A stretch of 64,000 nucleotides of DNA from an uncultured Acidobacteriota bacterium (GCA_963805925.1 CAWDWB010000009.1:517746-581745); one strand, 5' to 3'. Numbered from the stretch's first letter, positions 3,867 through 45,715 are shown. Notes: generated from the sequence alone by a model not told the origin. Program-made: numbers and translations.

Positions 3867-5723
3867 ATGAAACTTGTAGATCTCAAACCCTTCGCGATCG
3901 CCTTATTAACGGCAGTTTCGGTGCTGGCTCAACAGCCCGCGACCATCGCCGCAAACGACAACCGGACGCCGGCGGGCGAGTTGCGCGACGGCGTCCTGCA
4001 CTTGGAGTTCAACATCGACAAGGGCTCGTGGTATCCCGAGTCGGATAACGGCGAGTCGATCCCCGTGTATGCCTTTGGCGAGACCGGCAAGCCGTTGCAG
4101 ACTCCGGGACCGACGATTCGCGTTCCGCAGGGCACGACCATCGACATTTCGCTGCACAATTCGCTCACCGTGCCGGCGACGCTGCACGGCTTCCATCAGC
4201 GACCGGGCAAAGATAGCGATACGGTGACGGTCGATCCCGGCCAAACGCAGCATGTACGCTTCAACGCAGGGGCCGCGGGAATCTACCCCTACTACGGACG
4301 CACCCCGGACGGCGGAATGGGCGCCAACGGCAGGAACCGCGTCCTCGACGCTTTGCTCGGCGGAGCGCTGGTGGTGGATCCGCCGGGCACAGACCCCACT
4401 GCGGACCGCATCTTCGTGCTGGAGCGCTGGAAAGGCGCGCTCAGGACGGCGATCAACGGCAAGTCCTGGCCGTTCACGGAACGCTTATCCGCCGAGGTGG
4501 GCAAGGCGGTTCATTGGAAAGTCCTCAACGTGTCGGACCTCAGCCATCCGATGCACTTGCACGGTTTCCACTTCTGGCTGGACGCGGAGGGCGACGGAGA
4601 GTCCTACAAGGTACTCGACAAGAGCGAGAGGCACGAAGAGTTCACGCATTCGGCCGATGTCATGGAGACTTTCGAGATCACCTGGATGCCAAAGGAGCCG
4701 GGCCGTTGGCTTTATCACTGCCACCGGATGGCGCACATGCGGCTGCCTCTGCCGCTCCAACCAGGGGATGGCGTGGTCCCGGAGCATGTTGCCGAACACG
4801 AACACATGGAGGACTACGACTCAGGCTATGCCGGTTTGGGCGGCATGATTCTGGGCATTACCGTGACGGGGCATTCTGAGTTCGACACGGTGACCAACTG
4901 GCAAGCCGAACGACGAGTGAAGTTGGATGTGACCAACCGCAACGGAGATCCTTCTCTCTACGAGATCGCGCTTACGGACCTAAATTCCGATGCGCCGCCG
5001 GAGAAGAGTACAGGATTGACCGGGCCGCTGCTCGTCGTCACTGAGGGTCAGAAGACGGAGATTACCGTTGCTAACAACGCTTCGTCGGCGACGAGCATTC
5101 ACTGGCACGGGCAAGAGATCGAGAGCTATTACGACGGCGTGCCGTGGTGGAGCGGGATCGGAGAGAAGCGCGCGCCTCTGGTGGAGCCCGGACACGAGTT
5201 CAAAGCGAAGCTGATCCCCCAACGAGCAGGGTCGTTCATCTATCACGCCCATTGGCATGACGGCGGTCAGTTGATGGGCGGCATACAGGGACCAATGATC
5301 GTGCTGCCGCCAGGAGAGACATACGATCCGGAAAAGGATAAGTACTTCATCATGAGTTCGGCCCCTCCGGGATGGTACGGCGGCGCTATGCTGCTGATGA
5401 ATGGACTGCCTCAGCCGACGAGGGGCATGCGCTTGCGAGTAGGCGAAACGTACCGCTTCCGGTTCATGAACATCACTCCAGTGGGAGACGCGTTGCATGT
5501 GGGGCTCATGGGGCCGTCGGGCCCTGTCGAGTGGCGGCCATTGGCAAAGGACGCGGCCGAGACGGCGAACCACGAACTGCGCGCGGCGGATCAGCATGTG
5601 GCAGTAGGCGAGACGTTCGACTTCGAGTACCGCGCGACGAAGGCCGAAGAGCTTCAGCTAGAGGCCTGGTTCCCCGGCGGCAATCCGCTCATCGTGGAAA
5701 CAGTGGTCTTCGAGGATCGCTAG
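3867..5723 (+). CDS. Multicopper oxidase
   Basis: ATG at 3867 gives the signal peptide MKLVDLKPFAIALLTAVSVLAQQ. Copper-ligand motifs present: HPMHLHGFHF, YHCHRMAHM, IHWHG, YHAHWHD. Confidence 0.85.
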   Translation: MKLVDLKPFAIALLTAVSVLAQQPATIAANDNRTPAGELRDGVLHLEFNIDKGSWYPESDNGESIPVYAFGETGKPLQTPGPTIRVPQGTTIDISLHNSLTVPATLHGFHQRPGKDSDTVTVDPGQTQHVRFNAGAAGIYPYYGRTPDGGMGANGRNRVLDALLGGALVVDPPGTDPTADRIFVLERWKGALRTAINGKSWPFTERLSAEVGKAVHWKVLNVSDLSHPMHLHGFHFWLDAEGDGESYKVLDKSERHEEFTHSADVMETFEITWMPKEPGRWLYHCHRMAHMRLPLPLQPGDGVVPEHVAEHEHMEDYDSGYAGLGGMILGITVTGHSEFDTVTNWQAERRVKLDVTNRNGDPSLYEIALTDLNSDAPPEKSTGLTGPLLVVTEGQKTEITVANNASSATSIHWHGQEIESYYDGVPWWSGIGEKRAPLVEPGHEFKAKLIPQRAGSFIYHAHWHDGGQLMGGIQGPMIVLPPGETYDPEKDKYFIMSSAPPGWYGGAMLLMNGLPQPTRGMRLRVGETYRFRFMNITPVGDALHVGLMGPSGPVEWRPLAKDAAETANHELRAADQHVAVGETFDFEYRATKAEELQLEAWFPGGNPLIVETVVFEDR

Positions 5724-34902: not shown

Positions 34903-36243
34903 TCAATAACTGTCGAATAACGTGACCGTGTAGTCCTTGCTGGCCAGCATGTTTTCCAAGACCGGCCAGAGTCCCTGATGGGTGTCCGTGGCGACCCATG
35001 CTTGGCGCTGCGCTTCGCTGCGGAAGCTCAGTACGAAGCGATAGTTCATGCGGGCAGGCGGCTTGCCCATCAAGGCCGAGTCCAGTTTGAGCAACTTGAG
35101 GTCGATGTATCCCGGCTGCTTCGCGGCCGCCGGCCGGAACTCGGTTTCGAAACTGCGAACGAAGGCCGCTTCCTTCGCCGGGTCGACGTTCAAATCGACG
35201 TGCAACTCGATCCCGCGCGGAGCTGGTCCGTAGAGCGGGCGCATGCCGGGCACCGATAGCTTGATGCGGTAAAGGCTGGTTTCGGCCGTCATGTAGAGCG
35301 ACTTGCCGTCATCGCCCCAGGCGGCGTTGGCAGGACTCTCGGGCGGTTGGATTGTGCCCAGGTGCTTGCCGCTGGCGTCAAAAACCCAAACTCCGCCGGG
35401 ACCCGAACCGTAGACGTTGCCGGCTTCATCGACCTTCATGCCGTCCGGCAACCCGGCAGCTGGCTCGTTGGTCACATCGGCAAAAACTCGCCCGTTGGAC
35501 ACGGTGCCGTCGGCGTTCACGTCGTAGGCCATCCAGAACCTGTGGTTCTCATCGGAATTCGAAACATAGAGAGTCTGGTAGTCGGGCGAAAAGGCGATCC
35601 CATTGGGACGCGTCAGATCCTTCACCAAGACTTGTAACTCGCCGTTGGACAAGCGATAGACGCCGTTGAAGTCAAGTTCTTTTGCCGGGTCGTCATCTTG
35701 CGCCGGCAAGCCATAGGGCGGATCGGTGAAGTAGAGCGAACCGTCGCGATGGAAAACGAGATCGTTCGGGCTGTTGAGCTTCTTGCCCTCGAAGCTGTCG
35801 ACGAGCGTCGTCACCGTGCCGTCTTTGGCGATGCGGGCGATGCGTCGGTTGCCGTGTTGGCACAGCAGTACCGAGCCGTCCTTGTCATAGGTCATCCCGT
35901 TGGGGCCGATGAAGCCCCCCGCCGGCAGACTGTCTCCGTCATATCCGCCGGGACGCAGCACCTCGGTGACGGTTCCGTCGGGAGCGTACTGGCGCACCAC
36001 GTTGCCGACGACGTCGCTGAACCATAGCGAACCGTCCTCGCGCCAAAGCGGACCCTCGATAAAGCTGAAGCCGCCGGCAAGCTTCTCGATCTCGGCGCCT
36101 GGCGGGACGATGGCGTCCAAGGCGGGGTCGAGCCGCTGGACGCTCCCTGTTGAGGGTGCTTCGGGTTCGGGAGCTGGAGGCGGCGCCGTGCAGCCGAAAG
36201 CGACGAGAACAAACAGAGTGAATAGAGAGTGTTTTTTGAGCAT
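34903..36243 (-). CDS. SMP-30/gluconolactonase/LRE-family lipoprotein with a C-terminal ABM-like domain
   Basis: ATG at 36243. MLKKHSLFTLFVLVAFGC contains a lipobox. FIEGPLWREDGSLWFSDV and six-blade propeller-like repeats. The last roughly 100 aa resemble an antibiotic-biosynthesis-monooxygenase fold. Confidence 0.7.
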   Translation of the reverse strand: MLKKHSLFTLFVLVAFGCTAPPPAPEPEAPSTGSVQRLDPALDAIVPPGAEIEKLAGGFSFIEGPLWREDGSLWFSDVVGNVVRQYAPDGTVTEVLRPGGYDGDSLPAGGFIGPNGMTYDKDGSVLLCQHGNRRIARIAKDGTVTTLVDSFEGKKLNSPNDLVFHRDGSLYFTDPPYGLPAQDDDPAKELDFNGVYRLSNGELQVLVKDLTRPNGIAFSPDYQTLYVSNSDENHRFWMAYDVNADGTVSNGRVFADVTNEPAAGLPDGMKVDEAGNVYGSGPGGVWVFDASGKHLGTIQPPESPANAAWGDDGKSLYMTAETSLYRIKLSVPGMRPLYGPAPRGIELHVDLNVDPAKEAAFVRSFETEFRPAAAKQPGYIDLKLLKLDSALMGKPPARMNYRFVLSFRSEAQRQAWVATDTHQGLWPVLENMLASKDYTVTLFDSY

Positions 36244-36439
36244 GAGCAGCGACCAGTTTTGAGAACGCCGCAATTGTAGCTCTTCCGGGCTGCTTGGCGG
36301 AGGGGTGAATCAGTTGACGCAGCGCCGTTGCTGTCCGACAATCGGGCCGGAACGATCAATGCCGAGGAGAACGAAACGGATCGAATGGACTGCGCGTTGG
36401 GCGGGCTTTCTGTTGATCTTGGCGGCCGGCGCCGTTCTC

Positions 36440-36487
36440 GGGGGAAACCGGGGGGAAACCGGGGGGAAACGGGGGGAAACCGGGACA
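36440..36487. repeat. Tandem 11-bp repeat GGGGAAACCGG x4 (one unit lacks a C), ending in the R-element TIR half-site AAACCGGGACA
   Basis: Read directly: gGGGGAAACCGGGGGGAAACCGGGGGGAAACGGGGGGAAACCGGGACA. Confidence 0.85.
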
Positions 36488-37255
36488 TCCATGATAGGTA
36501 TTTGTCAAGGATGGACGCAAGTAGATCCTGAGGCCGGTGGAGAGACCAGCGTTAGTATGGCTCAGCGAAGAGAGAAGCGGACAGAGCCTTACGGGGTCAA
36601 CGGCCAGCGTGACTGACATCCATGAGGCTGCAGCGGGCCTGAGGGCCGTAGCAGAAGTTTCAGCTTAGGGTTAGAGCCGCGTCGGCCTCGAAACAGTCGA
36701 GAACGGTCGCAGGCGGGCCTTACGGCCTTGGCGCAGTGCCCGGATCGGCGCAGGACCGAGCGGGCGGCTTGTCTCCGGCTTCGCCCGAGAATCTTGTGCT
36801 CCTCCTCAGGCCGCTCGCGTACGCGGCCGAAGGGCTCGCTGGAGCGGTCCACGGCGAGAAGGTAAGCGACCAGCTTGCGCGCCACCGCCAGGTCGCGCGG
36901 TTGCGCGAGCGGTGCAATAACTCCCGCTCATGAACGGCCTGGAGTTCGGGGTTGAAGCGAGGCGTCGAGTGTTCGCGGCCTCGTAAGCAGGTGCATGCAG
37001 GTGCTTGTTGCGCTGCTTGCGACAACGGCGCGCGCTGCGTCTTGCCCGACCGACTCGCGTTGCGCCGCGCAGCAGTCAACGCAGTAGCTCACCGCCCGAC
37101 GCACCGAGCTGAATCGCTAGGGTTCAGCGACCTCCAAGGCCCACGTGGAGGGCTCGAAGACCTTGTACCCACGCCGTCGAATGGATTGCCGAAGCGGGCG
37201 ACAGCGTTCTCTCAACAGCCGATGTTGGGCGAGCCCTTGCAGCGAGACGCCGTTC
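36488..37255 (-). mobile_element. Degraded, 5'-deleted copy of the IS110/IS1111-family element (3' arm plus 3' part of the transposase gene)
   Basis: Collinear with 39724..40467 of the intact copy. It starts with the same TCCATGATAGGTATTTGTCAAGGATGGACGC and has many substitutions and indels that break the transposase frame (ORF fragments 36589..36885, 36720..37079). Homology ends at ...GACGCCGTTC. Confidence 0.75.
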
Positions 37256-37271
37256 GGGGAAACCGGGGGAG

Positions 37272-37448
37272 AAACCGGGACAGCCTCAATTAGCATTGGC
37301 CCCATCTCTAAGTCATTGATTCAACTAGATCTACGACGAGAATCGGAGCGGCGCGATATCGCGTCTTTAGGCTGCAACTGATTGAATAATAAAAGCTTCT
37401 GCTCTCAGAACAGATTCTGCTTGATTACAATTGAGGCTGTCCCGGTTT
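37272..37448. mobile_element. R1: 177-bp MITE-like element with perfect 20-bp terminal inverted repeats
   Basis: Left TIR AAACCGGGACAGCCTCAATT (37272-37291), right TIR AATTGAGGCTGTCCCGGTTT (37429-37448). The interior is AT-richer and 100% identical to R2 and R3. Confidence 0.85.
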
Positions 37449-37935
37449 GCCCCACTCGATCTAGCTCCTCGATTAGTTGCAACACCGAAACACGCTCGTC
37501 CTCATGGAGTTCAAACCAACGCCCACCGGTCAAAGTATCGACTGTGGCCTCGGCGATGTATGCGTTCTCGGCATCTGAACTGAACCATACGGAAAGATCT
37601 CCTCTATCGATACAAAGACGATAGTCGAATCGCGAGCCTCCTCCTTCCGTCGAATCCCGTTCTACCGAAACTGTCTCTTCAAGGACGCGCAAGAGTTTTT
37701 GCTTCAGCGATGCAGAAATCCTCTGACTCGAAACCAGATATCTCTCATCCTTCAATGCCGCTGCTGCCACAGCAGTGCGTGTCAGAACTTGCGGCGACAG
37801 GAAGTAGACTCTCATGACGTCATCGGCCGAGACTGCCGTACAGCCCGCGAAGGCCCCAACCCAAGCTGCGGCAACGACAATCGACAACACCAACAATGCC
37901 AACAACCGTCGTGGACTAATGGGCGTAGAAGTCAT
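37405..37935 (-). CDS. Hypothetical lipoprotein, immunity-like orphan; the last 14 codons are read from R1
   Basis: MTSTPISPRRLLALLVLSIVVAAAWVGAFAGC contains a lipobox. AAGGTGA RBS. The ATG overlaps a preceding TGA (ATGA). The ORF leaves native sequence at 37448/37449 and terminates inside R1. Confidence 0.45.
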   Translation of the reverse strand: MTSTPISPRRLLALLVLSIVVAAAWVGAFAGCTAVSADDVMRVYFLSPQVLTRTAVAAAALKDERYLVSSQRISASLKQKLLRVLEETVSVERDSTEGGGSRFDYRLCIDRGDLSVWFSSDAENAYIAEATVDTLTGGRWFELHEDERVSVLQLIEELDRVGQTGTASIVIKQNLF

Positions 37936-38001
37936 ACTTCACCTTTTGTTGGCCGCGCGCCGCTTCTTCGAGCTTGAGCATGGACGCCGCGCTTGTTGGG
38001 G

Positions 38002-38178
38002 AAACCGGGACAGCCTCAATTAGCATTGGCCCCATCTCTAAGTCATTGATTCAACTAGATCTACGACGAGAATCGGAGCGGCGCGATATCGCGTCTTTAG
38101 GCTGCAACTGATTGAATAATAAAAGCTTCTGCTCTCAGAACAGATTCTGCTTGATTACAATTGAGGCTGTCCCGGTTT
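38002..38178. mobile_element. R2: second identical copy of the 177-bp MITE-like element, same orientation as R1
   Basis: Base-for-base identical to 37272..37448. Confidence 0.85.
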
Positions 38179-38204
38179 GCCCCCGGTTTGCCCCCGGTTT
38201 GCCC
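38171..38204. repeat. Tandem 11-bp repeat CCCGGTTTGCC x3, beginning inside the R2 right TIR
   Basis: Read directly: CCCGGTTTGCCCCCGGTTTGCCCCCGGTTTGCCC. Confidence 0.85.
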
Positions 38205-38456
38205 CGCAAGCGAGGCTTCGTGGCGGCTCAGCCGACCGAAGCCGGGGTCGCTCCCGCCCTTCCCCTGACCCCCAAAACGGGGTCCTGCCGCCACCGCTCC
38301 GCTGTACTTCGCTCACTCTTCGGCTCTTACCGGCCCAAACGGTGAACGCCTCCCATCGAAACTACGGTGAACGCCCCTTTTTTCCTGAGTTCACCCGCCT
38401 CCCGCCACGCCACGGGGGTAAAAAGGGCGGTCGTAGGATGTGGCGGGCACGTAGGT

Positions 38457-38903
38457 TTACAGAGTTAACCATCCATTGCCTACAATGCCTAGAATCGTCT
38501 CGAAGTCTCGCCGATCCAATACTTCACTAGTCTCTACTTGGTCATCGGTCCACATTTCGGGGGTGGAGAGCAGTCTAGTCAAGACGATCTGCGAACCTCG
38601 CGGACAACGCATGAGATAGTATTCCCGCACTATGCGGTCGCTGCTCCAATCCTTGTATTCAGAAGCTCGCGCCCAGTGGTGGGTCGAAACCAAATGCTCA
38701 AGCTCTTGATCTCTTCCGGTGCCGTCACCGACAAAAACTGACGCCAGTTTCACTAGCGCATGACCGTCAAGACTGCCCCCACATACCGAACATGGGCTAA
38801 ACCGATCACGGACAACAGCAAGAGTACGGTCGGCAGAGGACATGCGCTTCGGGCGCCAAGCAAATAGCTTTAACAGTCTATCCGACACACTAAGCATCAT
38901 CAT
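38457..38903 (-). CDS. Hypothetical protein, candidate immunity protein for the upstream glycine-zipper toxin tip
   Basis: 148-aa ORF starting 9 nt after the toxin stop, with GGACGAGGAAA-ATG. No recognisable domain. Its position is typical of Rhs/CDI immunity genes. Confidence 0.5.
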   Translation of the reverse strand: MMMLSVSDRLLKLFAWRPKRMSSADRTLAVVRDRFSPCSVCGGSLDGHALVKLASVFVGDGTGRDQELEHLVSTHHWARASEYKDWSSDRIVREYYLMRCPRGSQIVLTRLLSTPEMWTDDQVETSEVLDRRDFETILGIVGNGWLTL

Positions 38904-38912
38904 TTCCTCGTC

Positions 38913-39711
38913 CTAGTTCAGCCAATCGTAAATCTTGGTTGCCACTTTTTCGCCACCGATTCCGCCGGCGATGCCTCCACCTAGGGCACCTATAACTCCG
39001 CCAATCGCCGCTCCGGGAACGGCTCCCGCCCCACCAAACCATACGCCAACCGCTGCACCGACTTGCGCCCCAGCGGCACCGCCAATACTCCCAAGTGCAA
39101 CCGCTCCTGCCCACGTACCACCTTCCTGGGCTAGTGCACGCGATTTATTGTCTGCGGTTGCTACGTTATACGCTGATACGCCTGCACCGACAACCATGAG
39201 CGCTGGCCCGGCTTTACCCGCAACCCCCATCGCTGCGTCAACAGCAGCATTAGATTTCGATGCGGTACCGCCAACTCTCGCGGCTTCATTGGCGATAGGG
39301 CGCATAGTTTCGGCGATCGCCGCCCCCGTTGGGGAACTGGCGGCACGGGCCTCGATCTTGAGAGCGGTCCTTGCCGCCGATGCAACAGGATCTCCTTGCG
39401 GTGCTCCCTGCAACGTTTGCAGGCCCTGGTTGTAATTGGCTCGGGCGGCAGCATCCTGTGTTGCCTGGGTGCCCACACTCACGGCGGCACCTTGAACTGC
39501 CCGGCCCGCCGTCTCTTCATCCGTACAACGTTGTGTCCCATCCGGGCAACTGTCAGCTAGTCCATTCGGGTCAACTAGGCGAAGAGGATTATTAAGAACG
39601 TAAGCGTACGCGTTCCACGATTGAGGCTGAGACGCTCGAGCTGCCGCATTTCCCGGATCAACGCTCGTAAATCGCCCGAGGCTCGCCGACATGTACCGCG
39701 CCCCGAAGTGG
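38913..39711 (-). CDS. Orphan Rhs C-terminal tip: end of the RHS core (FGARYM...GRFTSVDP...NNPLRLVDPNGL) plus a glycine-zipper-rich C-terminal toxin domain; 5'-truncated
   Basis: RHS repeat-associated core signature, then a variable C-terminal domain ending in long G/A-rich zipper helices (GAAVGVWFGGAGAVPGAAIGGVIGALGGGIAGGIGG). Upstream homology ends at the R3/IS boundary. The ORF-track N-terminus MDVPVS is translated from TIR/IS sequence. Confidence 0.7.
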
Positions 39712-39723
39712 GAAACCGGGACA

Positions 39724-41159
39724 TCCATGATAGGTATTTGTCAAGGATGGACGCAGTCATCCTGAGGCCGGTGGAGAGACCAGCGTTAGTAGGTCAGCGA
39801 AGAGCGAAGCGGACCGAGCCTTACGGGGTCAACGGGCCAAGCGTGACCAGACATCCATGAGCTGCAGCGGGCCTGAGGGCCGTAGCAGAAGTTTCAGTTA
39901 GGGTTAGAGCCCGTCGGCCTCGAAACAGTCAGAACGGTCGCAGCGGGCCTTACGGCCTTGGCGCAGTCCCGGATCGGCGAGGACCGACGGGCGGCTTGTC
40001 TCCGGCTTCGCCCGGAATCTTGTTCTCCTCCTCAGGCCGCTCGCGTACGCGGCGCGAAGGGCTCGCCGGAGCGGTCCACGGCGAGCAGGTAAGCGACCAG
40101 CTTGCGCGCCACCGCCAGCGTCGCGCGGTTGCGCGAGCCGTGCAATAACTCCCGCTCATGAACGGCCTGGAGTTCGGGGTTGAAGCGCGGCGCTAGTTTC
40201 GCCGCTTCGATCAGCACGGTCTGTAGGTGCTTGTTGCGCTGCTTGGACAAGGGCGCGCGTTGCGTCTTGCCCGCCGACTCGCGTTGCGCCGCGCACAGCC
40301 CGCAGTAGCTCACCGCCCGACGCACCGAGCTGAATCGCTCGGGTTCAGCGACCTCCAAGGCCCAGGTCAGCGCCGTCACTTGGCCGACGCCGCGAATCGA
40401 TTGCAAGCGGGCGACGCGTTCTCTCAACAGCCGATGTTGGGCGAGCCCTTTCAGCAGACGCCGTTCAAGATCTTCAAACGTCTCCAGCATTCCGCGGCTG
40501 AGAGCCAGCAGCTCGATCGCCGACTCCGGCGTGTGTTCGAGCGAATCGAGCAACTGGTAGAAGTAGCGTTTGCCGTGCAGCCGGTCCTTGACGTACTCCT
40601 CTCCGCACTCCATCAACAGGCCGGATATCTTGTTCTTCAGCCGCACCGCTTCGCGCACCAACAGGTTGCGGTAACGCAACACCCGCCGCAACTCGCGAAT
40701 CTCCCCCGGCGCCATGTAGCAGCCCGGCAACAGATCGCAGCGCGCCAGATCGCAGATCTTCTCCGCATCGAGGCGGTCGTTCTTCTTCTTGGCGCAGGCG
40801 ATCGCCTTCAGCATCGCCGGATGCGCCACTTGCAGCTCGGCCGCGTAGGGTTCCAAATGATCGTAAATCCAACCGGTGAACAGCGTCGCCTCCAACGCTC
40901 CGACCCACGGCCCGGCAACGCCTCGGCCCACTCGCTCAACGCCGCCCGCGTGGCCGCCACGCTGCCGGACGCGACCTTCTCTCCGGCAGTCGTCTTCACT
41001 GCATAGCTCACCGTTTTCTTGTGGACATCGAGCCCTACGTAGTAGAAACTCTCCATGGAATCCTCCTGGGTATGACTCGAGGCGCGCCGCTTCGCGGCTC
41101 GTCCTCGCTTTCTTTGTCCTCCAGGAGGATTCTTCTTGGCGCTCACCTATACATCAAAA
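39724..41159 (-). mobile_element. IS110/IS1111-family insertion sequence (about 1.44 kb) inserted in the left TIR of R3
   Basis: Flanks reconstitute the R TIR: AAACCGGGACA|IS|GCCTCAATT, with ACA/CA shared at both junctions. No terminal IRs, but subterminal IRs are present: ATGATAGGT (39727-39735) versus CACCTATACATC (41144-41155). Short 5' arm (about 100 bp) and long 3' arm (about 310 bp), as in the IS1111 subgroup. Confidence 0.85.
40032..41056 (-). pseudogene. IS110-family (DEDD/RuvC-like) transposase, interrupted by a 1-nt frameshift
   Basis: The N-terminus MESFYYVGLDVHKKTVSYAV is the IS110 DEDD_Tnp hallmark. The C-terminal part (40032..40931 frame) carries the Transposase_20-like region (SIRGVGQVTALTWALEV). 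The frames join as ...AEALPG|PWVGALEATLF if one C is added in GGGCC(C)G near 40912-40916. Confidence 0.85.
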
Positions 41160-41327
41160 CAGCCTCAATTAGCATTGGCCCCATCTCTAAGTCATTGATT
41201 CAACTAGATCTACGACGAGAATCGGAGCGGCGCGATATCGCGTCTTTAGGCTGCAACTGATTGAATAATAAAAGCTTCTGCTCTCAGAACAGATTCTGCT
41301 TGATTACAATTGAGGCTGTCCCGGTTT
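41160..41327. mobile_element. R3: third copy of the 177-bp MITE-like element; its first 11 bp lie at 39713..39723 on the other side of the IS
   Basis: 41160..41327 is identical to positions 10-177 of R1/R2. 39713..39723 = AAACCGGGACA. Confidence 0.85.
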
Positions 41328-41519
41328 GCCGAACCGGTTCCAACTCTGCGGATCGCCTACCCGTCCGGACGCCAAAAGTGGATCAGCGCTTGTGAACCGC
41401 CCCAGGGCCGACGACATATACCTGGCCAGGAAGTAATCCAACCCGGACTCTTGATCGCGTTCTTTGGCGGTGGACCGTTCCGCATCGTACGCGCACCAGC
41501 GCAACAGACCATGGGTCAA
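41328..41519 (-). pseudogene. Orphan Rhs core fragment (…AKERDQESGLDYFLARYMSSALGRFTSADP…PQSWNRF) truncated at the R3 boundary
   Basis: RHS core signature without YD repeats upstream or a toxin domain downstream. The reading frame runs into the R3 TIR and stops there. Confidence 0.6.
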
Positions 41520-42124
41520 AACCTGAAAAGTACCACTTTCTGCTTTGAACTTGATTGGTCAGGCTGCAAAACGCGACTCGCAAGGTTGCCGTCATGCACC
41601 GCGACAATAGTCGTTTCCCGGCCAGGCAGTAGATCGATCAAGACTTTGCCGTCCAATCCCGTTTGATACCACTTCTGACTTTCAGCATTTGCATCCCGGA
41701 CAAGAATCTCAGCGGATGCAACTGGAATCCCATCTCTATTTCGCACTTCCACTTGGCAATGCTTTACACGTCCGATGGTGAAGGCGTTGCCTGTCGTAGG
41801 CAAAACCTCCAGTGCTAACTTCAGGTCGACCGGATCGGTGTTGACCAAGAACTCTCGAACGGTCGTTCGACATAATCCATACGGACAAGTCGCAATAATC
41901 TGATAAAGCCCCATCGCAAGGTCTTGCGTCGGAACGGCGCCATTCCGATTCGTCAAGGCCCTTAAGCTTTCTCCCCTTCCTTCAAGAGATCTAACGATTA
42001 CAAGAACATCCGGGAAACCTAAACCTGATTTGTCCACGGTCACGACATGCACCTGGGCCGCTTGGGTGCAAACAGAGATACCCAGGAACAAGAATGAGAG
42101 ACGAACTTGCTTCCACTGGATCAT
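41516..42124 (-). CDS. Secreted CarboxypepD_reg-like protein; candidate immunity protein for the upstream HExxH toxin tip
   Basis: ATG at 42124 overlaps the toxin stop (ATGA). Signal peptide MIQWKQVRLSFLFLGISVCTQAAQ followed by two Ig-like beta-sandwich-type segments. Confidence 0.5.
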   Translation of the reverse strand: MIQWKQVRLSFLFLGISVCTQAAQVHVVTVDKSGLGFPDVLVIVRSLEGRGESLRALTNRNGAVPTQDLAMGLYQIIATCPYGLCRTTVREFLVNTDPVDLKLALEVLPTTGNAFTIGRVKHCQVEVRNRDGIPVASAEILVRDANAESQKWYQTGLDGKVLIDLLPGRETTIVAVHDGNLASRVLQPDQSSSKQKVVLFRF

Positions 42125-43350
42125 GGACAGGGCCCTCCCGGCGTATTTGCCACGCACGCAACCTTTTGAGCCTGCTGCGCTGCCTGAGCTGCTCCTTGTT
42201 GAATGATGGTTGCCGCCGCCGCGTCATACTGGACATTCGGTTGGAACTTTTGGCCAGCGGCTCCGAGCGCTTTCACCGTTTGTTGAGCGCGCTTCTCTGC
42301 CGTTCCTCCAGTTGTGTTTTGGGCACCCGGCCTAGATGACGCGTCTCCGGCGGCGCCCGCCGCCGCCGCTCCCTGGAAACTGGTTGCGGAAAGCATGTCC
42401 GTGACATGTTGATCTTCATGCGCAAACGCCGTCAACCCCACTGTGAAGTTGCTCTTCCCTGTCGCTTTGGCCACCGTTGAGATGTTCGAATTGTCTAGAG
42501 TGACGTTGATCCCTGCTACCGCTCCAGGAGAACCAGGAACTACGACCGCTGCACCAGCTGTAACGTTCTGAACCCCATTTCCGGTACTCACGGGTAAGCG
42601 GCCCTGGTCGAACGTGACCGGAAGATTGCTCGCGGCAATCGCGTTGACCGTTGCAGCGCCCTGTGGCGTTCTGAGCATCGTAGAGATGTACTCCTGGACC
42701 TGCCCCTGCATCCCAGGGGCAACGACAAAGTATTCACCAGTCGGATCGACGTATTTTAGCGGGTTGTTCCGCGTGTAGGTGTATCGGTTCCATGTTTGGG
42801 GCTCGCCCTCTGAGTACGGACCCGGGTCAGGGCTCGTAAACCGACCTTGGGCGCTCGCCATGTACCGCGCCCCGAAGTAGTCGAGGCCGCTCTCCGCGTC
42901 GCGTTCTTTGGCGGTAAAGAGCTGATCAAAGCCTGCCGGGTCGCCGTAGCCCGTCACGCTCGCGCGCGCCCCGTACGTATCCGGGATCTCTTCGCCGAAG
43001 GGGAAGAAGTCGTAGCGCGAGACGACGGCCGGCGTCGTGCTGTCGTCCGTCACCAAGCGCGTCGAGCCCAAGTGATCGGTCGTGCGGAAGTAGCTGCCCG
43101 CGGGCGTCGTCGACGCGGCGGTCGAGTACTCCGCCGCTAGCCGTCCCGTGGCGTCGTAAACGTAGGTCGTCTCTGCGCCCGTGTTGTAGTCGATCTTGCG
43201 GACGCGGTTGCCTTCGCCGTCATAGACGTACTCGGCGTCGGCGTTCGCGCTGTTGCACGTCCCCAGCGTGTTCTGGCGGGCTCCGTCCCCTTTGGCCTTT
43301 GGCTGGTCCCCTTTGGCTGCCTTTGGCTGAGAATGTGCTGTGACCGTCAC
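42121..43350 (-). CDS. Orphan Rhs tip: last YD repeats plus RHS core (…AKERDAESGLDYFGARYM…NNPLKYVDPTGEYF) plus C-terminal domain with an HExxH motif
   Basis: YD-repeat consensus (YVYDGEGNRV, YVYDATGRL). Core signature, then a roughly 220-aa variable domain containing AFAHEDQHVTD. Only a GTG start immediately after an in-frame TGA. The N-terminal roughly 24 codons are not Rhs-like. Confidence 0.7.
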   Translation of the reverse strand: MTVTAHSQPKAAKGDQPKAKGDGARQNTLGTCNSANADAEYVYDGEGNRVRKIDYNTGAETTYVYDATGRLAAEYSTAASTTPAGSYFRTTDHLGSTRLVTDDSTTPAVVSRYDFFPFGEEIPDTYGARASVTGYGDPAGFDQLFTAKERDAESGLDYFGARYMASAQGRFTSPDPGPYSEGEPQTWNRYTYTRNNPLKYVDPTGEYFVVAPGMQGQVQEYISTMLRTPQGAATVNAIAASNLPVTFDQGRLPVSTGNGVQNVTAGAAVVVPGSPGAVAGINVTLDNSNISTVAKATGKSNFTVGLTAFAHEDQHVTDMLSATSFQGAAAAGAAGDASSRPGAQNTTGGTAEKRAQQTVKALGAAGQKFQPNVQYDAAAATIIQQGAAQAAQQAQKVACVANTPGGPCP

Positions 43351-43392
43351 CGATCACCCGAACCCAGCGGACCAGTCCTTCAACTTCAAAGA

Positions 43393-43860
43393 CTACTGCA
43401 TCGAATCCTCGCCTTTGCCTTGCAATATCGATATGCCCTCTTCCACCTTGGCAGCCGGTATGAGCACCTGTCCATCGTCCAGATAAACCAAAGGCACTAA
43501 TTCTTGTCCGACCCATAGCCGGTGGTTTCGAGATCGAACTGGATCGATCGAGATAGTGCGCGCATCCTCTTGGACTCTTTCGTAATACGGGACAAACTCG
43601 CCTTTGTAGACCAGATCGCCATTCACGCCCGTCAGCCGGCATCCGTAGGTCGCTTGTGACGGATGCCAACACTCCATCCATTGTCCGCGCCTTGAGCGGG
43701 GCAATCCGACGTAAGGGGCCCATAAGAACACAGCCCCAGAGGACACACTATCAGGCCGACTGGGCGGTGTGTTCGCCCACCAATACGCGCCGACGACTAG
43801 GACGATCAAGAGTGCACCGAGGGTCGCCAGGGTGGCAATGACTTTACTTCCTGGAGTCAT
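43393..43860 (-). CDS. Hypothetical membrane-anchored protein
   Basis: MTPGSKVIATLATLGALLIVLVVGAYWW signal-anchor plus a roughly 120-aa extracytoplasmic domain. No recognisable family. The ORF-track start at 43878 is TTG. Confidence 0.45.
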   Translation of the reverse strand: MTPGSKVIATLATLGALLIVLVVGAYWWANTPPSRPDSVSSGAVFLWAPYVGLPRSRRGQWMECWHPSQATYGCRLTGVNGDLVYKGEFVPYYERVQEDARTISIDPVRSRNHRLWVGQELVPLVYLDDGQVLIPAAKVEEGISILQGKGEDSMQ

Positions 43861-44072
43861 ATAGCGCCGGGCCTCCAATATGATCCCGCGACACTAAGTC
43901 TATTCACGAGATTTTACCCCCGCTGCCTTGTCGTAGCAGATGCCTGAGTCGATTGACTCTCTCGGTGTTTTTTCCTCCGGCAAAAGGCAAAAGGGGACGG
44001 AGCACTAAACGAGTTCTTTATCCGGTCCAGGCGGTCCTCTTGCACCACGCTGCTACCCTGGAATCAACAAAG

Positions 44073-44311: not shown

Positions 44312-45715
44312 TTACTCCGCGCGCAGATTGGCGAGCAAGGCGTCGACAGAAGCCTTCGCGTCGCCGAAGAGCATGCGCGAGTTGTCGCGGTAGAAGAGCG
44401 GGTTGTCGATGCCGGAGTAGCCGCTGGCCATCGAGCGCTTGAAGATGACGACGCTCTTGGCTTTCCAGACCTCAAGCACCGGCATGCCGTAGATCGGGCT
44501 GGAAACGTCGTCGAGTGCGGCAGGGTTGACGATATCGTTGGCGCCGATGACCAGCACCACATCGGTCGACGGGAAGTCCGCGTTGATCTCGTCCATCTCG
44601 AGCACGACGTCGTAAGGGATACGAGCTTCGGCCAGCAGGACGTTCATGTGACCGGGGAGGCGACCGGCGACAGGATGGATGGCGAAGCGCATCCGCGTGC
44701 CGTTGGCCTGCAACTTCTTCATCAGATCGGCCACCGCGTATTGCGCCTGGGCAACGGCCATGCCGTAGCCGGGCACAACGACCACCTCTTTCGCTGCGCT
44801 CAGCCAGGCGGCGACCTCCTCAGCCGAGGTCGACGTGACTTCGCCCTGCGGCTCGCCGTTGGCAGCGGGCGCGGACTTGCCGGCCCCTTGTCCGAAGCCG
44901 CCGAGGATGACGCTGACGAACTTGCGATTCATCGCCCGGCACATGATGTAGCTAAGGATCGCGCCGGAGCTGCCGACCAATGCGCCGGTGATGATGAGCA
45001 GGTCGTTGCCGAGCATGAAGCCGGCGGCGGAGGCGGCCCAGCCCGAGTAGCTGTTGAGCATCGAGACGACGACGGGCATGTCGGCCGAACCGATGGCCGC
45101 GACCAGGTGCACGCCCAGCAGCAACGCGATGCCGGTGATGATAAGCAGCGGCGTGAGGCCGGCAGGATCAGGCGCGCGCATAAACCAGACCGTGAGCGGC
45201 GCACCGGACAACACGCCGACGAGATTCAGCACGTGGCGGCCCGGCAATAGCAGCGGCTTGCTTCCCCAGATGCCCTGCAACTTAGCGAAGGCAACAACCG
45301 ATCCGCTAAAGGTGATCGCACCGATGAAGACGCCGGCGCAGATTTCGAAGTCATGGACGATGCGTTCAAATCCGGCGGTCTGGACGGCAGGCGCTAGGTA
45401 GTTGCTGATGCCGACCAGCACTGCCGCGGCGCCGACGAAGCTGTGCAGCATGGCGACCAGCTGCGGCATGGCGGTCATTTCGACGCGGGCGGCGAGTCTC
45501 GCCCCGACGACGGCGCCGACGGCCAGCGCCGGAACCAGCAGCGTCCAATTGCCGATGTGGCCTCCGCCTAGGGTGAAGACCACAGCCAGCAGCATGCCGA
45601 GGATTCCGAACCAATTGCCGCGACGGGCGGTTTCCTGAGTTGAAAGTCCGCCGAGGCTCTGGATAAAGAGCACGGCGGCGACGAGGTAGGCGGCTGTGAT
45701 GACTCCCGGCGGCAT
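44312..45715 (-). CDS. pntB: NAD(P) transhydrogenase subunit beta
   Basis: 467 aa with a polytopic N-terminal half plus the dIII NADP(H)-binding domain ([22 protein letters not shown]). Confidence 0.9.

Follow-up and report, generated by a model that had tools for sequence, protein, structure and literature searches.

A 64,000-nucleotide stretch of DNA from an uncultured Acidobacteriota bacterium (GCA_963805925.1 CAWDWB010000009.1:517746-581745), referred to below as the window, contains three copies (R1, R2 and R3) of a 177-bp repeat, R, within an island of Rhs toxin genes bounded by a gluconolactonase-like gene (34903-36273) on one side and pntB (44312-45715) on the other. Read along the minus strand, the island has the order Rhs C-terminal module, putative immunity gene, Rhs core-end fragment, R3 interrupted by an insertion sequence (IS), orphan Rhs module, 148-aa open reading frame (ORF), R2, 176-aa ORF, R1 and a truncated IS (Table 1). 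The three copies of R share one orientation and all lie inside 4 kb. An earlier note, made from the sequence alone, had described R as resembling a miniature inverted-repeat transposable element (MITE). Here we report the structure of R, the occurrence of its ends in other genomes and the transposase gene that such ends bracket.

Structure of the repeat

R1 and R2 agree base for base, and R3, after splicing across the inserted IS, is identical to both at 177/177 positions, as the earlier note had claimed. Its start for the right part of R3 (41160) lay 2 nt too far left, as the end rule of the IS1111 family places the 'CA' at 41160-41161 in the IS; without that rule, 2 nt of the junction could be placed on either side. 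All copies possess a perfect 20-bp inverted terminus, AAACCGGGACAGCCTCAATT, which occurs five times in the window (0.00 expected, 100 shuffles). The two ends are slightly asymmetrical, with GGGGAAACC (GGGG-AAACC) on the left and GGGGCAAACC on the right. The common unit reaches 3 nt past each terminal inverted repeat, or TIR (GGG...GCC), and identity among the copies ends within about 3 bases of the TIRs at 6/6 boundaries. Since the duplicated sequence ends beside the TIRs, R is a discrete unit and no part of a segmental duplication, which was consistent with its first description as a discrete, non-coding, TIR-bearing repeat without a transposase of its own.

R is thus built as a doublet, two ends with 137 bp of AT-richer filler between them (GC 0.46 for R vs 0.61 for the window). 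The palindrome CGCGATATCGCG (at 37352 in R1), three TTGAWT hexamers (37316, 37382 and 37421 in R1) and the TTCTG/CAGAA hairpin were all present, as had been reported, and the minus strand of the hairpin scores as a terminator-like stem followed by a T-tract. The same terminator-like hairpin lies at 38118-38144 in R2 and 41267-41293 in R3 (minus strand, consensus match). A sigma-70-like promoter scan of R found none, and the peptides encoded by R, searched in a protein database for a count of copies, yielded no candidate. Three features go beyond the earlier note: the 3-nt extension of the unit, arrays of 11-bp units in the flanks, and the missing target-site duplication. By comparison of flanks, no such duplication was found at R1, R2 or R3, where the note had expected that duplications could be defined, nor at ten doublets of other genomes; the flanks prolong the inverted symmetry and share no direct repeat.

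As single-stranded DNA, R with its flanks folds into a hairpin closed by a 20-bp stem (-39.6 kcal/mol, z = -4.4). Folded as RNA, R lies far below its shuffles (z = -5.4 and -5.6); centroid structures show that the signal comes mainly from the 20-bp terminal stem, and an Rfam scan of 35-45 kb gave no match at E<=1.

R-type ends in other genomes and a bracketed Y1/HUH gene

We scanned one genome per species (596 Gb, in which about one chance match is expected for a 20-mer) and found the exact 20-mer terminus in 29 genomic stretches, 28 of them from metagenome-assembled genomes of Bryobacterales (Acidobacteriota), while the remaining one is about what chance provides. Related genomes have 1-7 exact 20-mers each, a count that misses diverged copies. 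The terminus is conserved, with varying sequence behind it at different loci; about 12 loci hold doublets of 90-260 bp with a slightly different second end, AACTGAGGCTGTCCCGG. Only one other locus among the 29 has Rhs sequence near the terminus, and the confinement of R to a toxin island, as claimed before, is therefore true inside the 64-kb window and does not extend to the family elsewhere.

Copies of related doublets within other genomes are 80-88% alike. Moreover, one doublet occupies an orthologous site in two species-level Bryobacterales genomes (L011 5516-5607 and L020 115-276; loci are given by our own designations), where the flanks are 94-96% identical and the L011 copy is about 70 bp shorter in its interior. 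The diverged copies and the orthologous doublet indicate that the family is old and able to be stably inherited, and that three identical copies are unusual for it. The interiors of family members are unconserved, a short motif excepted. When the doublets of L009, L013, L015, L017, L020 and L028 were aligned with R1, this interior motif, CTCTAACTTRCTGATTCTAC (CTCTAAGTCATTGATTCAAC in R), was located about 20 nt behind the 'CAATTA' end, and most of these doublets also share CTATCATATTGAAAAC. The motif may be a remnant of a TIRtron regulatory region.

Several other arrangements of the terminus were observed. In L026 (2976-3050), a form of about 60 bp consists of AAACCGGGACAGCCTCAATT, 33 nt and TAGTCCCGGTTTCCCC with a stutter copy, and adjoins an IS1380-type transposase gene. 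A non-coding repeat of about 1 kb, 79-84% identical among L006 (5902-6935), L021 (2442-3487) and L023 (4587-5611), which all come from CBDFIS010000006.1, starts with an R-type terminus and finishes close to a conserved AAATACGAAACAAACCCAATT...CAATTGCAATCAA, without a second terminus or a convincing ORF. A segment of 277-279 bp, 100% identical, was located near R-type ends at several places of one genome (CBDEGI01), in L014 (1345-1623, 1760-2036, 3335-3613), L022 (2733-3009) and L029 (7222-7501), and the ORF that covers it has no Pfam match. Eight 17-mer matches in viral contigs were discarded as chance-like, being without an AAACC-type outer arm, stutter or partner end; blastn against plasmids gave no match.

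A gene bracketed by R-type ends was found in L016, where the ends at 4084-4103 and 4849-4868 enclose a 782-bp unit encoding a 237-aa ORF. Its protein matched Pfam Y1_Tnp (IS200-like) at 2.7e-10 and the NCBIfam model 'REP-associated tyrosine transposase' (RAYT; REP, repetitive extragenic palindrome) at 1.5e-18, and L012 has a truncated copy of the gene, 86% identical. The right end of R, GGGGCAAACCGGGACAGCCTCA (GGGGCAAACC), is the gene-upstream end of the L016 unit and the left end, GAAACCGGGACAGCCTCAATTA (GGGGAAACC), is the gene-downstream end, and this asymmetry agrees base for base over 21-22 nt.

A metagenome search with the L016 protein returned 546 relatives, and 80 loci were kept. In the closest relatives (58-74% identity), exact GGGACAG[CG]CTCA stands inverted beside the gene, at about 50 bp on the upstream side and at 5-50 bp on the downstream side; it occurs on both sides in L031, L032, L033 and L041 and on one side in L030, L034 and L035. 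Inverted repeats flank the gene in 52 of the 69 relatives for which both flanks were available, and in 37/52 cases they contain GGGWSAS, mostly as GGGACAG[TGC]C. In a family of 17 sequences, all of which match Y1_Tnp, the HxH motif is invariant (H60 and H62, NHVH) and the tyrosine of GHLWQNRFY (Y104) is conserved in at least 90%. The profile of the 17 sequences had a sole match in the PDB, E. coli TnpA-REP (4ER8, E=2e-4), and the single L016 sequence had none there. The 17 members also share a conserved C-terminal extension (…GRPLG…F…LE…GRRLRP…GRP.K).

Class of R and competing explanations

The ends with their asymmetry, their tie to a Y1 gene, seen both in a related genome and among metagenomic relatives, and the missing target duplication are direct observations. 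R is neither a classical MITE nor a device specific to the toxin island. It is best read as a genuine non-autonomous element and an addition to the repeats associated with TIRYTs and TIRtrons, and we presume, with a probability of roughly 0.7, that R is a miniature, gene-less TIRtron derivative of the Y1/HUH, RAYT-like TIRYT type which is mobilised in trans.

TIRYTs and TIRtrons were defined as RAYT-like genes with long terminal inverted repeats in place of GTAG REPs (Di Nocera, De Gregorio & Rocco 2013, PMC3733652). In that study the TIR consensus was GGGGWSAS, the TIR families were moderately abundant and occurred as singles, dimers and clusters, and an Acidobacteria-specific TIRYT group was singled out; the same enzymes form subclass 2.1 of TnpA-Y1 in Quentin et al. 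2018 (PMC6006769). R resembles these repeats in its long inverted-repeat ends, in the absence of small REP hairpins, in the flanking of a RAYT-like Y1/HUH gene by R-type ends at about 30-50 bp (seen in L016 and other loci of related genomes and metagenomes) and in a moderate number of copies present as singles, dimers and clusters. Further, CGGGACAG of R matches the GGGGWSAS core at 7/8 positions, with GGGACAG exact. Unlike those repeats, R is a dimer with an unrelated 137-bp spacer in three identical copies, and its host belongs to a Bryobacterales lineage unlisted among the Acidobacteria species of the 2013 survey.

REPINs (REP doublets forming hairpins) and their RAYTs (Bertels & Rainey 2011, PMC3116915; Bertels et al. 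2017, PMC5581495) are similar as well: both they and R consist of two inverted recognition sequences in a hairpin-capable, non-autonomous doublet, the recognition sequences also lie on either side of a Y1 tyrosine transposase gene, as a rule present once, and copies persist for long at orthologous sites. However, the REP/REPIN unit of RAYT groups 2-3 is an imperfect palindrome of 20-40 nt, whereas the arm of R (20-24 nt) has no internal palindrome and no 5' GT[AG]G tag; R is therefore no REP/REPIN unit. Its spacer is also longer, and its copy number, judged by the exact 20-mers in related genomes, is apparently tens at most and not hundreds. IS200/IS605 elements and the gene-less PATEs have the same Y1/HUH enzyme class, no target duplication and an expected single-strand 'peel and paste', but the ends of IS200/IS605 are two different subterminal hairpins and not mutual inverted repeats as in R, and their transposase is much shorter.

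If R is a gene-less TIRtron, it would keep both TIRtron ends in their original polarity, unrelated filler standing where the gene would be. On the model of IS200/IS605 TnpA and E. coli TnpA-REP, a TIRYT would act on R in trans from another place in the source genome, and its gene would be expected between GGGGCAAACCGGGACAGCCTCA… and …TGAGGCTGTCCCGGTTTCCCC. In single-stranded DNA the 20-24-nt ends would pair as a long hairpin; one strand would be cut and rejoined at or near the GGGACAG core via a 5'-phosphotyrosine link, and such cutting and rejoining could move or copy the unit without target duplication.

Several points weigh against the derivation of R from a TIRtron. The L016 protein scored 67 bits, under the NCBIfam equivalog cut-off of 80. 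The C-terminal similarity to Bac_DnaA_C, HTH_23 or HTH_28 that is reported for TnpA-Y1 subclass 2.1 was undetected by Pfam in the 17 R-type relatives, where no helix-turn-helix family matched the C-terminal extension at E<=1. As the earlier note had stated, the window contains no matching transposase: tblastn found no Y1/TIRYT gene in its 64 kb, and the IS110-family transposase is the only one seen in the stretch examined for others, 30-50 kb, the cognate enzyme being assumed to lie in the source genome. The interior of R is unrelated to the coding part of the observed TIRtrons, so a 'deletion derivative' and 'two ends captured around other DNA' would look alike, and three copies within 4 kb form a pattern that local gene conversion would also give. 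To our knowledge, in the literature that we searched, no TIRYT has been demonstrated to bind, cut or move anything, and the proposed mechanism is one by analogy.

The alternatives differ in which of these observations they account for. A classical MITE, that is, an internally deleted DDE-type IS moved by cut-and-paste through a full-length IS elsewhere with the same TIRs, would fit the perfect 20-bp TIRs and the small, ORF-less, AT-richer body, and DDE genes (IS1380-type, DDE_Tnp_1_4; IS4-type, DUF4372+DDE_Tnp_1) do recur in loci with the terminus. These genes were rejected as partners, as they stand outside the terminus or kilobases off and never between paired R-type ends; the sole gene found bracketed by the ends is Y1/HUH. 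With no target-site duplication at any copy and no DDE transposase bounded by the ends, R is not a DDE-type MITE; the MITE-like class first proposed gives way to a partner of the Y1/HUH RAYT/TIRYT type, the full-length IS that had been envisaged is represented by the bracketed Y1/HUH gene and by no DDE element, and a MITE origin is very unlikely. To a site for site-specific recombination (integron attC-like or similar) bounding exchangeable toxin/immunity cassettes we give almost no credence. Small gene modules do lie between same-orientation copies of R, AAC...GTT occurs within the ends, and the IS in R is of the IS1111 type, some members of which target attC (PMC11187229), but other members target REPs as well; moreover, the ends read GGGAAAC / GTTTGCC and not RYYYAAC/GTTRRRY, the stem is perfect and has none of the extrahelical bases typical of attC, no association with cassette arrays was seen in other genomes, and no integrase was seen beside the examined loci (in the window, among the ORFs annotated at 34.9-43.9 kb, with no systematic search), the bracketed gene being a Y1 transposase. 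It is also highly improbable that R is mainly a functional RNA or regulatory module (small RNA, terminator or promoter cassette) repeated through selection. The low RNA folding energies, the terminator-like hairpin with its T-tract on the minus (gene) strand of every copy and the two ORFs that end inside R would agree with such a module, and because of the hairpin on the gene strand of the island and these two ORFs, R may indeed terminate or truncate neighbouring transcripts. However, the fold is mostly the terminal stem, neither Rfam nor the promoter scan supplied a match, interiors are unconserved among family members beyond the short motif, and a terminator role would be a side effect that leaves the ends unexplained.

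A different question is whether the identity of the copies reflects recent movement or homogenisation, two readings that the earlier note reasonably set side by side. The copies could be old and immobile and kept identical by local gene conversion or by recombination within the island, in which case their class may still be of the TIRYT type. In favour of this are the three copies in 4 kb in one orientation, the age of the family (80-88% likeness elsewhere and the orthologous site in two species-level genomes) and the abutment of R copies on truncated genes and a truncated IS, as active recombination between R copies predicts. Conversion tracts, however, would need to stop at the TIRs at all six boundaries, and R3 is identical on both sides of a 1.4-kb insertion. 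The sharp boundaries thus favour transposition, the 4-kb clustering also fits gene conversion, and we regard homogenisation of immobile copies as unlikely. With the two IS copies in the island diverged by 3.7% in substitutions, 177 bp without a difference would have P ~0.001 per pair, but the divergence of these IS copies may predate their insertion at the island, having arisen elsewhere in the genome.

Acidobacteria, Planctomycetes and many uncultured lineages abound in tyrosine transposases of the TIRYT type, which have been little discussed in the literature. For such enzymes the locus offers a clean short substrate, three base-identical copies whose ends can be matched with their polarity to a candidate enzyme; the IS insertion in R3 is an internal age marker, and effects on neighbours (truncated Rhs modules, ORFs ending inside R) are visible. 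For annotation, a 'MITE without matching transposase' in GC-rich soil bacteria may be HUH and not DDE.

The IS in R3, arm stutter and the toxin island

The IS in R3 belongs to the IS110 superfamily, and its DEDD transposase is split in two overlapping ORFs, 40808-41146 and 40032-40931 (minus). The split (near 40.92 kb) suggests a frameshift, and this copy is probably inactive too; the IS110-family gene in L004 is too distant for the frameshift to be judged against it. About 308 nt of non-coding sequence follow the transposase stop, against about 100 nt upstream of the gene, and the subterminal inverted repeats ATG(T)ATAGGT stop about 7 nt short of one end and 3 nt short of the other; the rules of the IS1111 family for such ends and layout are given in PMC11187229. 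ISPa11 and ISPpu9 target REPs and other IS1111 members target attC sites (PMC11187229). The REP-, attC- and TIR-targeting members (ISPa11, ISPpu9, ISKpn4/ISPst6; PMC11187229, 10.1101/2025.01.17.633520) resemble the IS in R3 in the DEDD transposase, the long downstream non-coding region, the short subterminal inverted repeats with about 7 and 3 nt beyond, and the orientation-specific entry into a repeated sequence without target duplication; unlike them, the IS in R3 has as its target the GGGACA^G core of a TIRYT-type terminus.

The IS end TCCATGATAGGTA... was found at seven junctions in five genomes or contigs (window 39723/39724 and 36487/36488, L016 ~3969, L022 ~2239, L029 ~6331, L075 ~2380, L007 ~3201), five times after GGGAC, once after GAGAC and once after GGAAC, where the IS end is a variant one. 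This pattern indicates that the IS lineage is directed at GGGACA^G in the core of R-type ends. In L022 a new R-type terminus begins immediately after a 23-nt fragment of the IS end, and the IS target in L029 has its own stutter (GGGGCAGTTT x2). Both groups of bases flanking the insertion point, CCGGGAC (39966-39972) and GCCTCA (39763-39768), recur in the IS itself, within its 3' non-coding region (minus); lying 200 nt apart and matching the same target strand, they may reflect chance rather than seekRNA guides.

The second IS copy had been described before as heavily decayed; compared with 39724-40466 of the intact IS, the remnant is 96.3% identical with 27 substitutions and 37 indel runs, and this indel-rich difference is either an unusual decay pattern or a local assembly error. 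Its left junction is identical to that of R3, and its truncation falls exactly where the arm copies flanking R1 begin. Several identical copies of R would offer an IS1111-type element a target and would also allow homologous recombination, and this would account for an Rhs module and an IS both being truncated next to R copies. Since the Rhs core fragment at R3 is without a toxin, an orphan module begins at R3 and the remnant is cut exactly at the arm copies of R1, the data suggest that R copies took part in deletions. One scenario that fits would have R insert into the IS, the remainder being lost afterwards through recombination with the interrupted R copy.

Table 1. Positions of R, the IS copies, arm arrays and island genes in the window
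Feature	Position	Strand	Basis
Arm-stutter array GGGGGAAACCG x4.2 (11-bp units)	36440..36484	+	Tandem Repeats Finder (TRF)
Array and a single outer arm, AAACCGGGACA, from an R-type terminus that the IS remnant interrupts	36440..36487	+	Junction identical to that of R3
Decayed partial IS copy: 3' non-coding region and C-terminal part of transposase gene	36488..37255	-	Equals positions 1-743 of intact copy
Two partial outer-arm copies (GGGGAAACCGG GGGAG) just outside R1	37256..37271	+	
R1, 177-bp TIR doublet	37272..37448	-	Polarity from comparison with L016 TIRtron
Terminator-like hairpin TCTGTTCTGAGAGCAGA + AGCTTTTATT in R1	37388..37414	-	Consensus match only
176-aa ORF, hydrophobic N-terminus, no Pfam match	37405..37935	-	
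R2, identical to R1	38002..38178	-	Sequence comparison
Arm-stutter array CCCGGTTTGCC x3.2 (complementary to GGGGGAAACCG), outside right end of R2	38171..38205	+	TRF
148-aa ORF after orphan Rhs module	38457-38903	-	
Orphan Rhs C-terminal module (FGARYMSASLGRFTSVDP..., glycine-rich tail), adjoins left end of R3	38913..39712	-	
R3, first 11 nt, AAACCGGGACA	39713..39723	-	Sequence comparison
1438-bp IS1111-type IS, inserted at GGGACA^GCC of R3	39724..41161	-	Pfam DEDD_Tnp_IS110 + Transposase_20; ends; non-coding region
R3, remaining 166 nt	41162..41327	-	Sequence comparison
71-aa Rhs core-end fragment (…DYFLARYMSSALGRFTSADP…PQSWNRFG), enters R3 and stops there (KPGQPQL*)	41304..41519	-	
Putative immunity gene	41516-42157	-	
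Rhs C-terminal module	42121-43350	-	

The 11-bp arrays beside the R copies (Table 1) repeat the outer arm of the terminus, and such a stutter is common to the family. Among 212 GGGACAG[CGT]C ends from all loci, at least one extra 7-nt outer arm was found within 70 nt outside the end in 104/212 cases, compared with 37/212 in an equal span inside, which served as control; at least two extra arms were found in 54/212 outside vs 5/212 inside. The outer arm differs by clade (GGAAACC, TTAAATA, CACTTCG, AGAACGA and others), stutter occurs regardless of its sequence, and the units break at varying points in GGG/AC/AG. Loci with stutter besides the window include L009, L012, L016, L031, L032, L041, L053, L062, L073, L101 and others. 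Stutter with clade-varying arms points to a process tied to the end itself and to no particular sequence. The searchable text of PMC3733652 and of PMC6006769 makes no mention of arm stutter or of targeting by IS1111 elements.

The stutter would arise as a by-product when ends are processed imprecisely or abortively, or through copy-choice at the foot of the hairpin. A stronger claim, which we put forward tentatively and think doubtful, is that it is a footprint of the enzyme chemistry (repeated cleavage-rejoining or copy-choice at the GGG^AC^AG core) and that the identical copies of R mark current activity. If this were true, the stutter would mark the cleavage site and reveal a mode of end processing not described for RAYT or IS200-type enzymes, and the identical copies would be evidence of a transposase class that is active now and reshapes an Rhs toxin array. 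The locus and the family-wide stutter together lead to concrete predictions on where and how the enzyme cuts.

As regards the neighbouring genes, two ORFs terminate inside R copies: the Rhs core-end fragment in R3, and the 176-aa ORF, whose final 14 codons and stop codon lie inside R1. The Rhs orphan array (38457-43878, minus) comprises a 409-aa C-terminal module, a CarboxypepD_reg-like 213-aa neighbour and the 71-aa fragment, and it has no long YD-repeat body; the second, orphan C-terminal module has a glycine-zipper-like tail with the 148-aa ORF alongside. GGGACAGCC is absent from the loci of four relatives with 87% identical PntB (L110-L113) and from a contig with 91% identical PntB (P0002). 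In these relatives the region downstream of pntB differs, with a Ser/Thr kinase and other genes in place of the Rhs/R island, which indicates that the island is lineage-specific.

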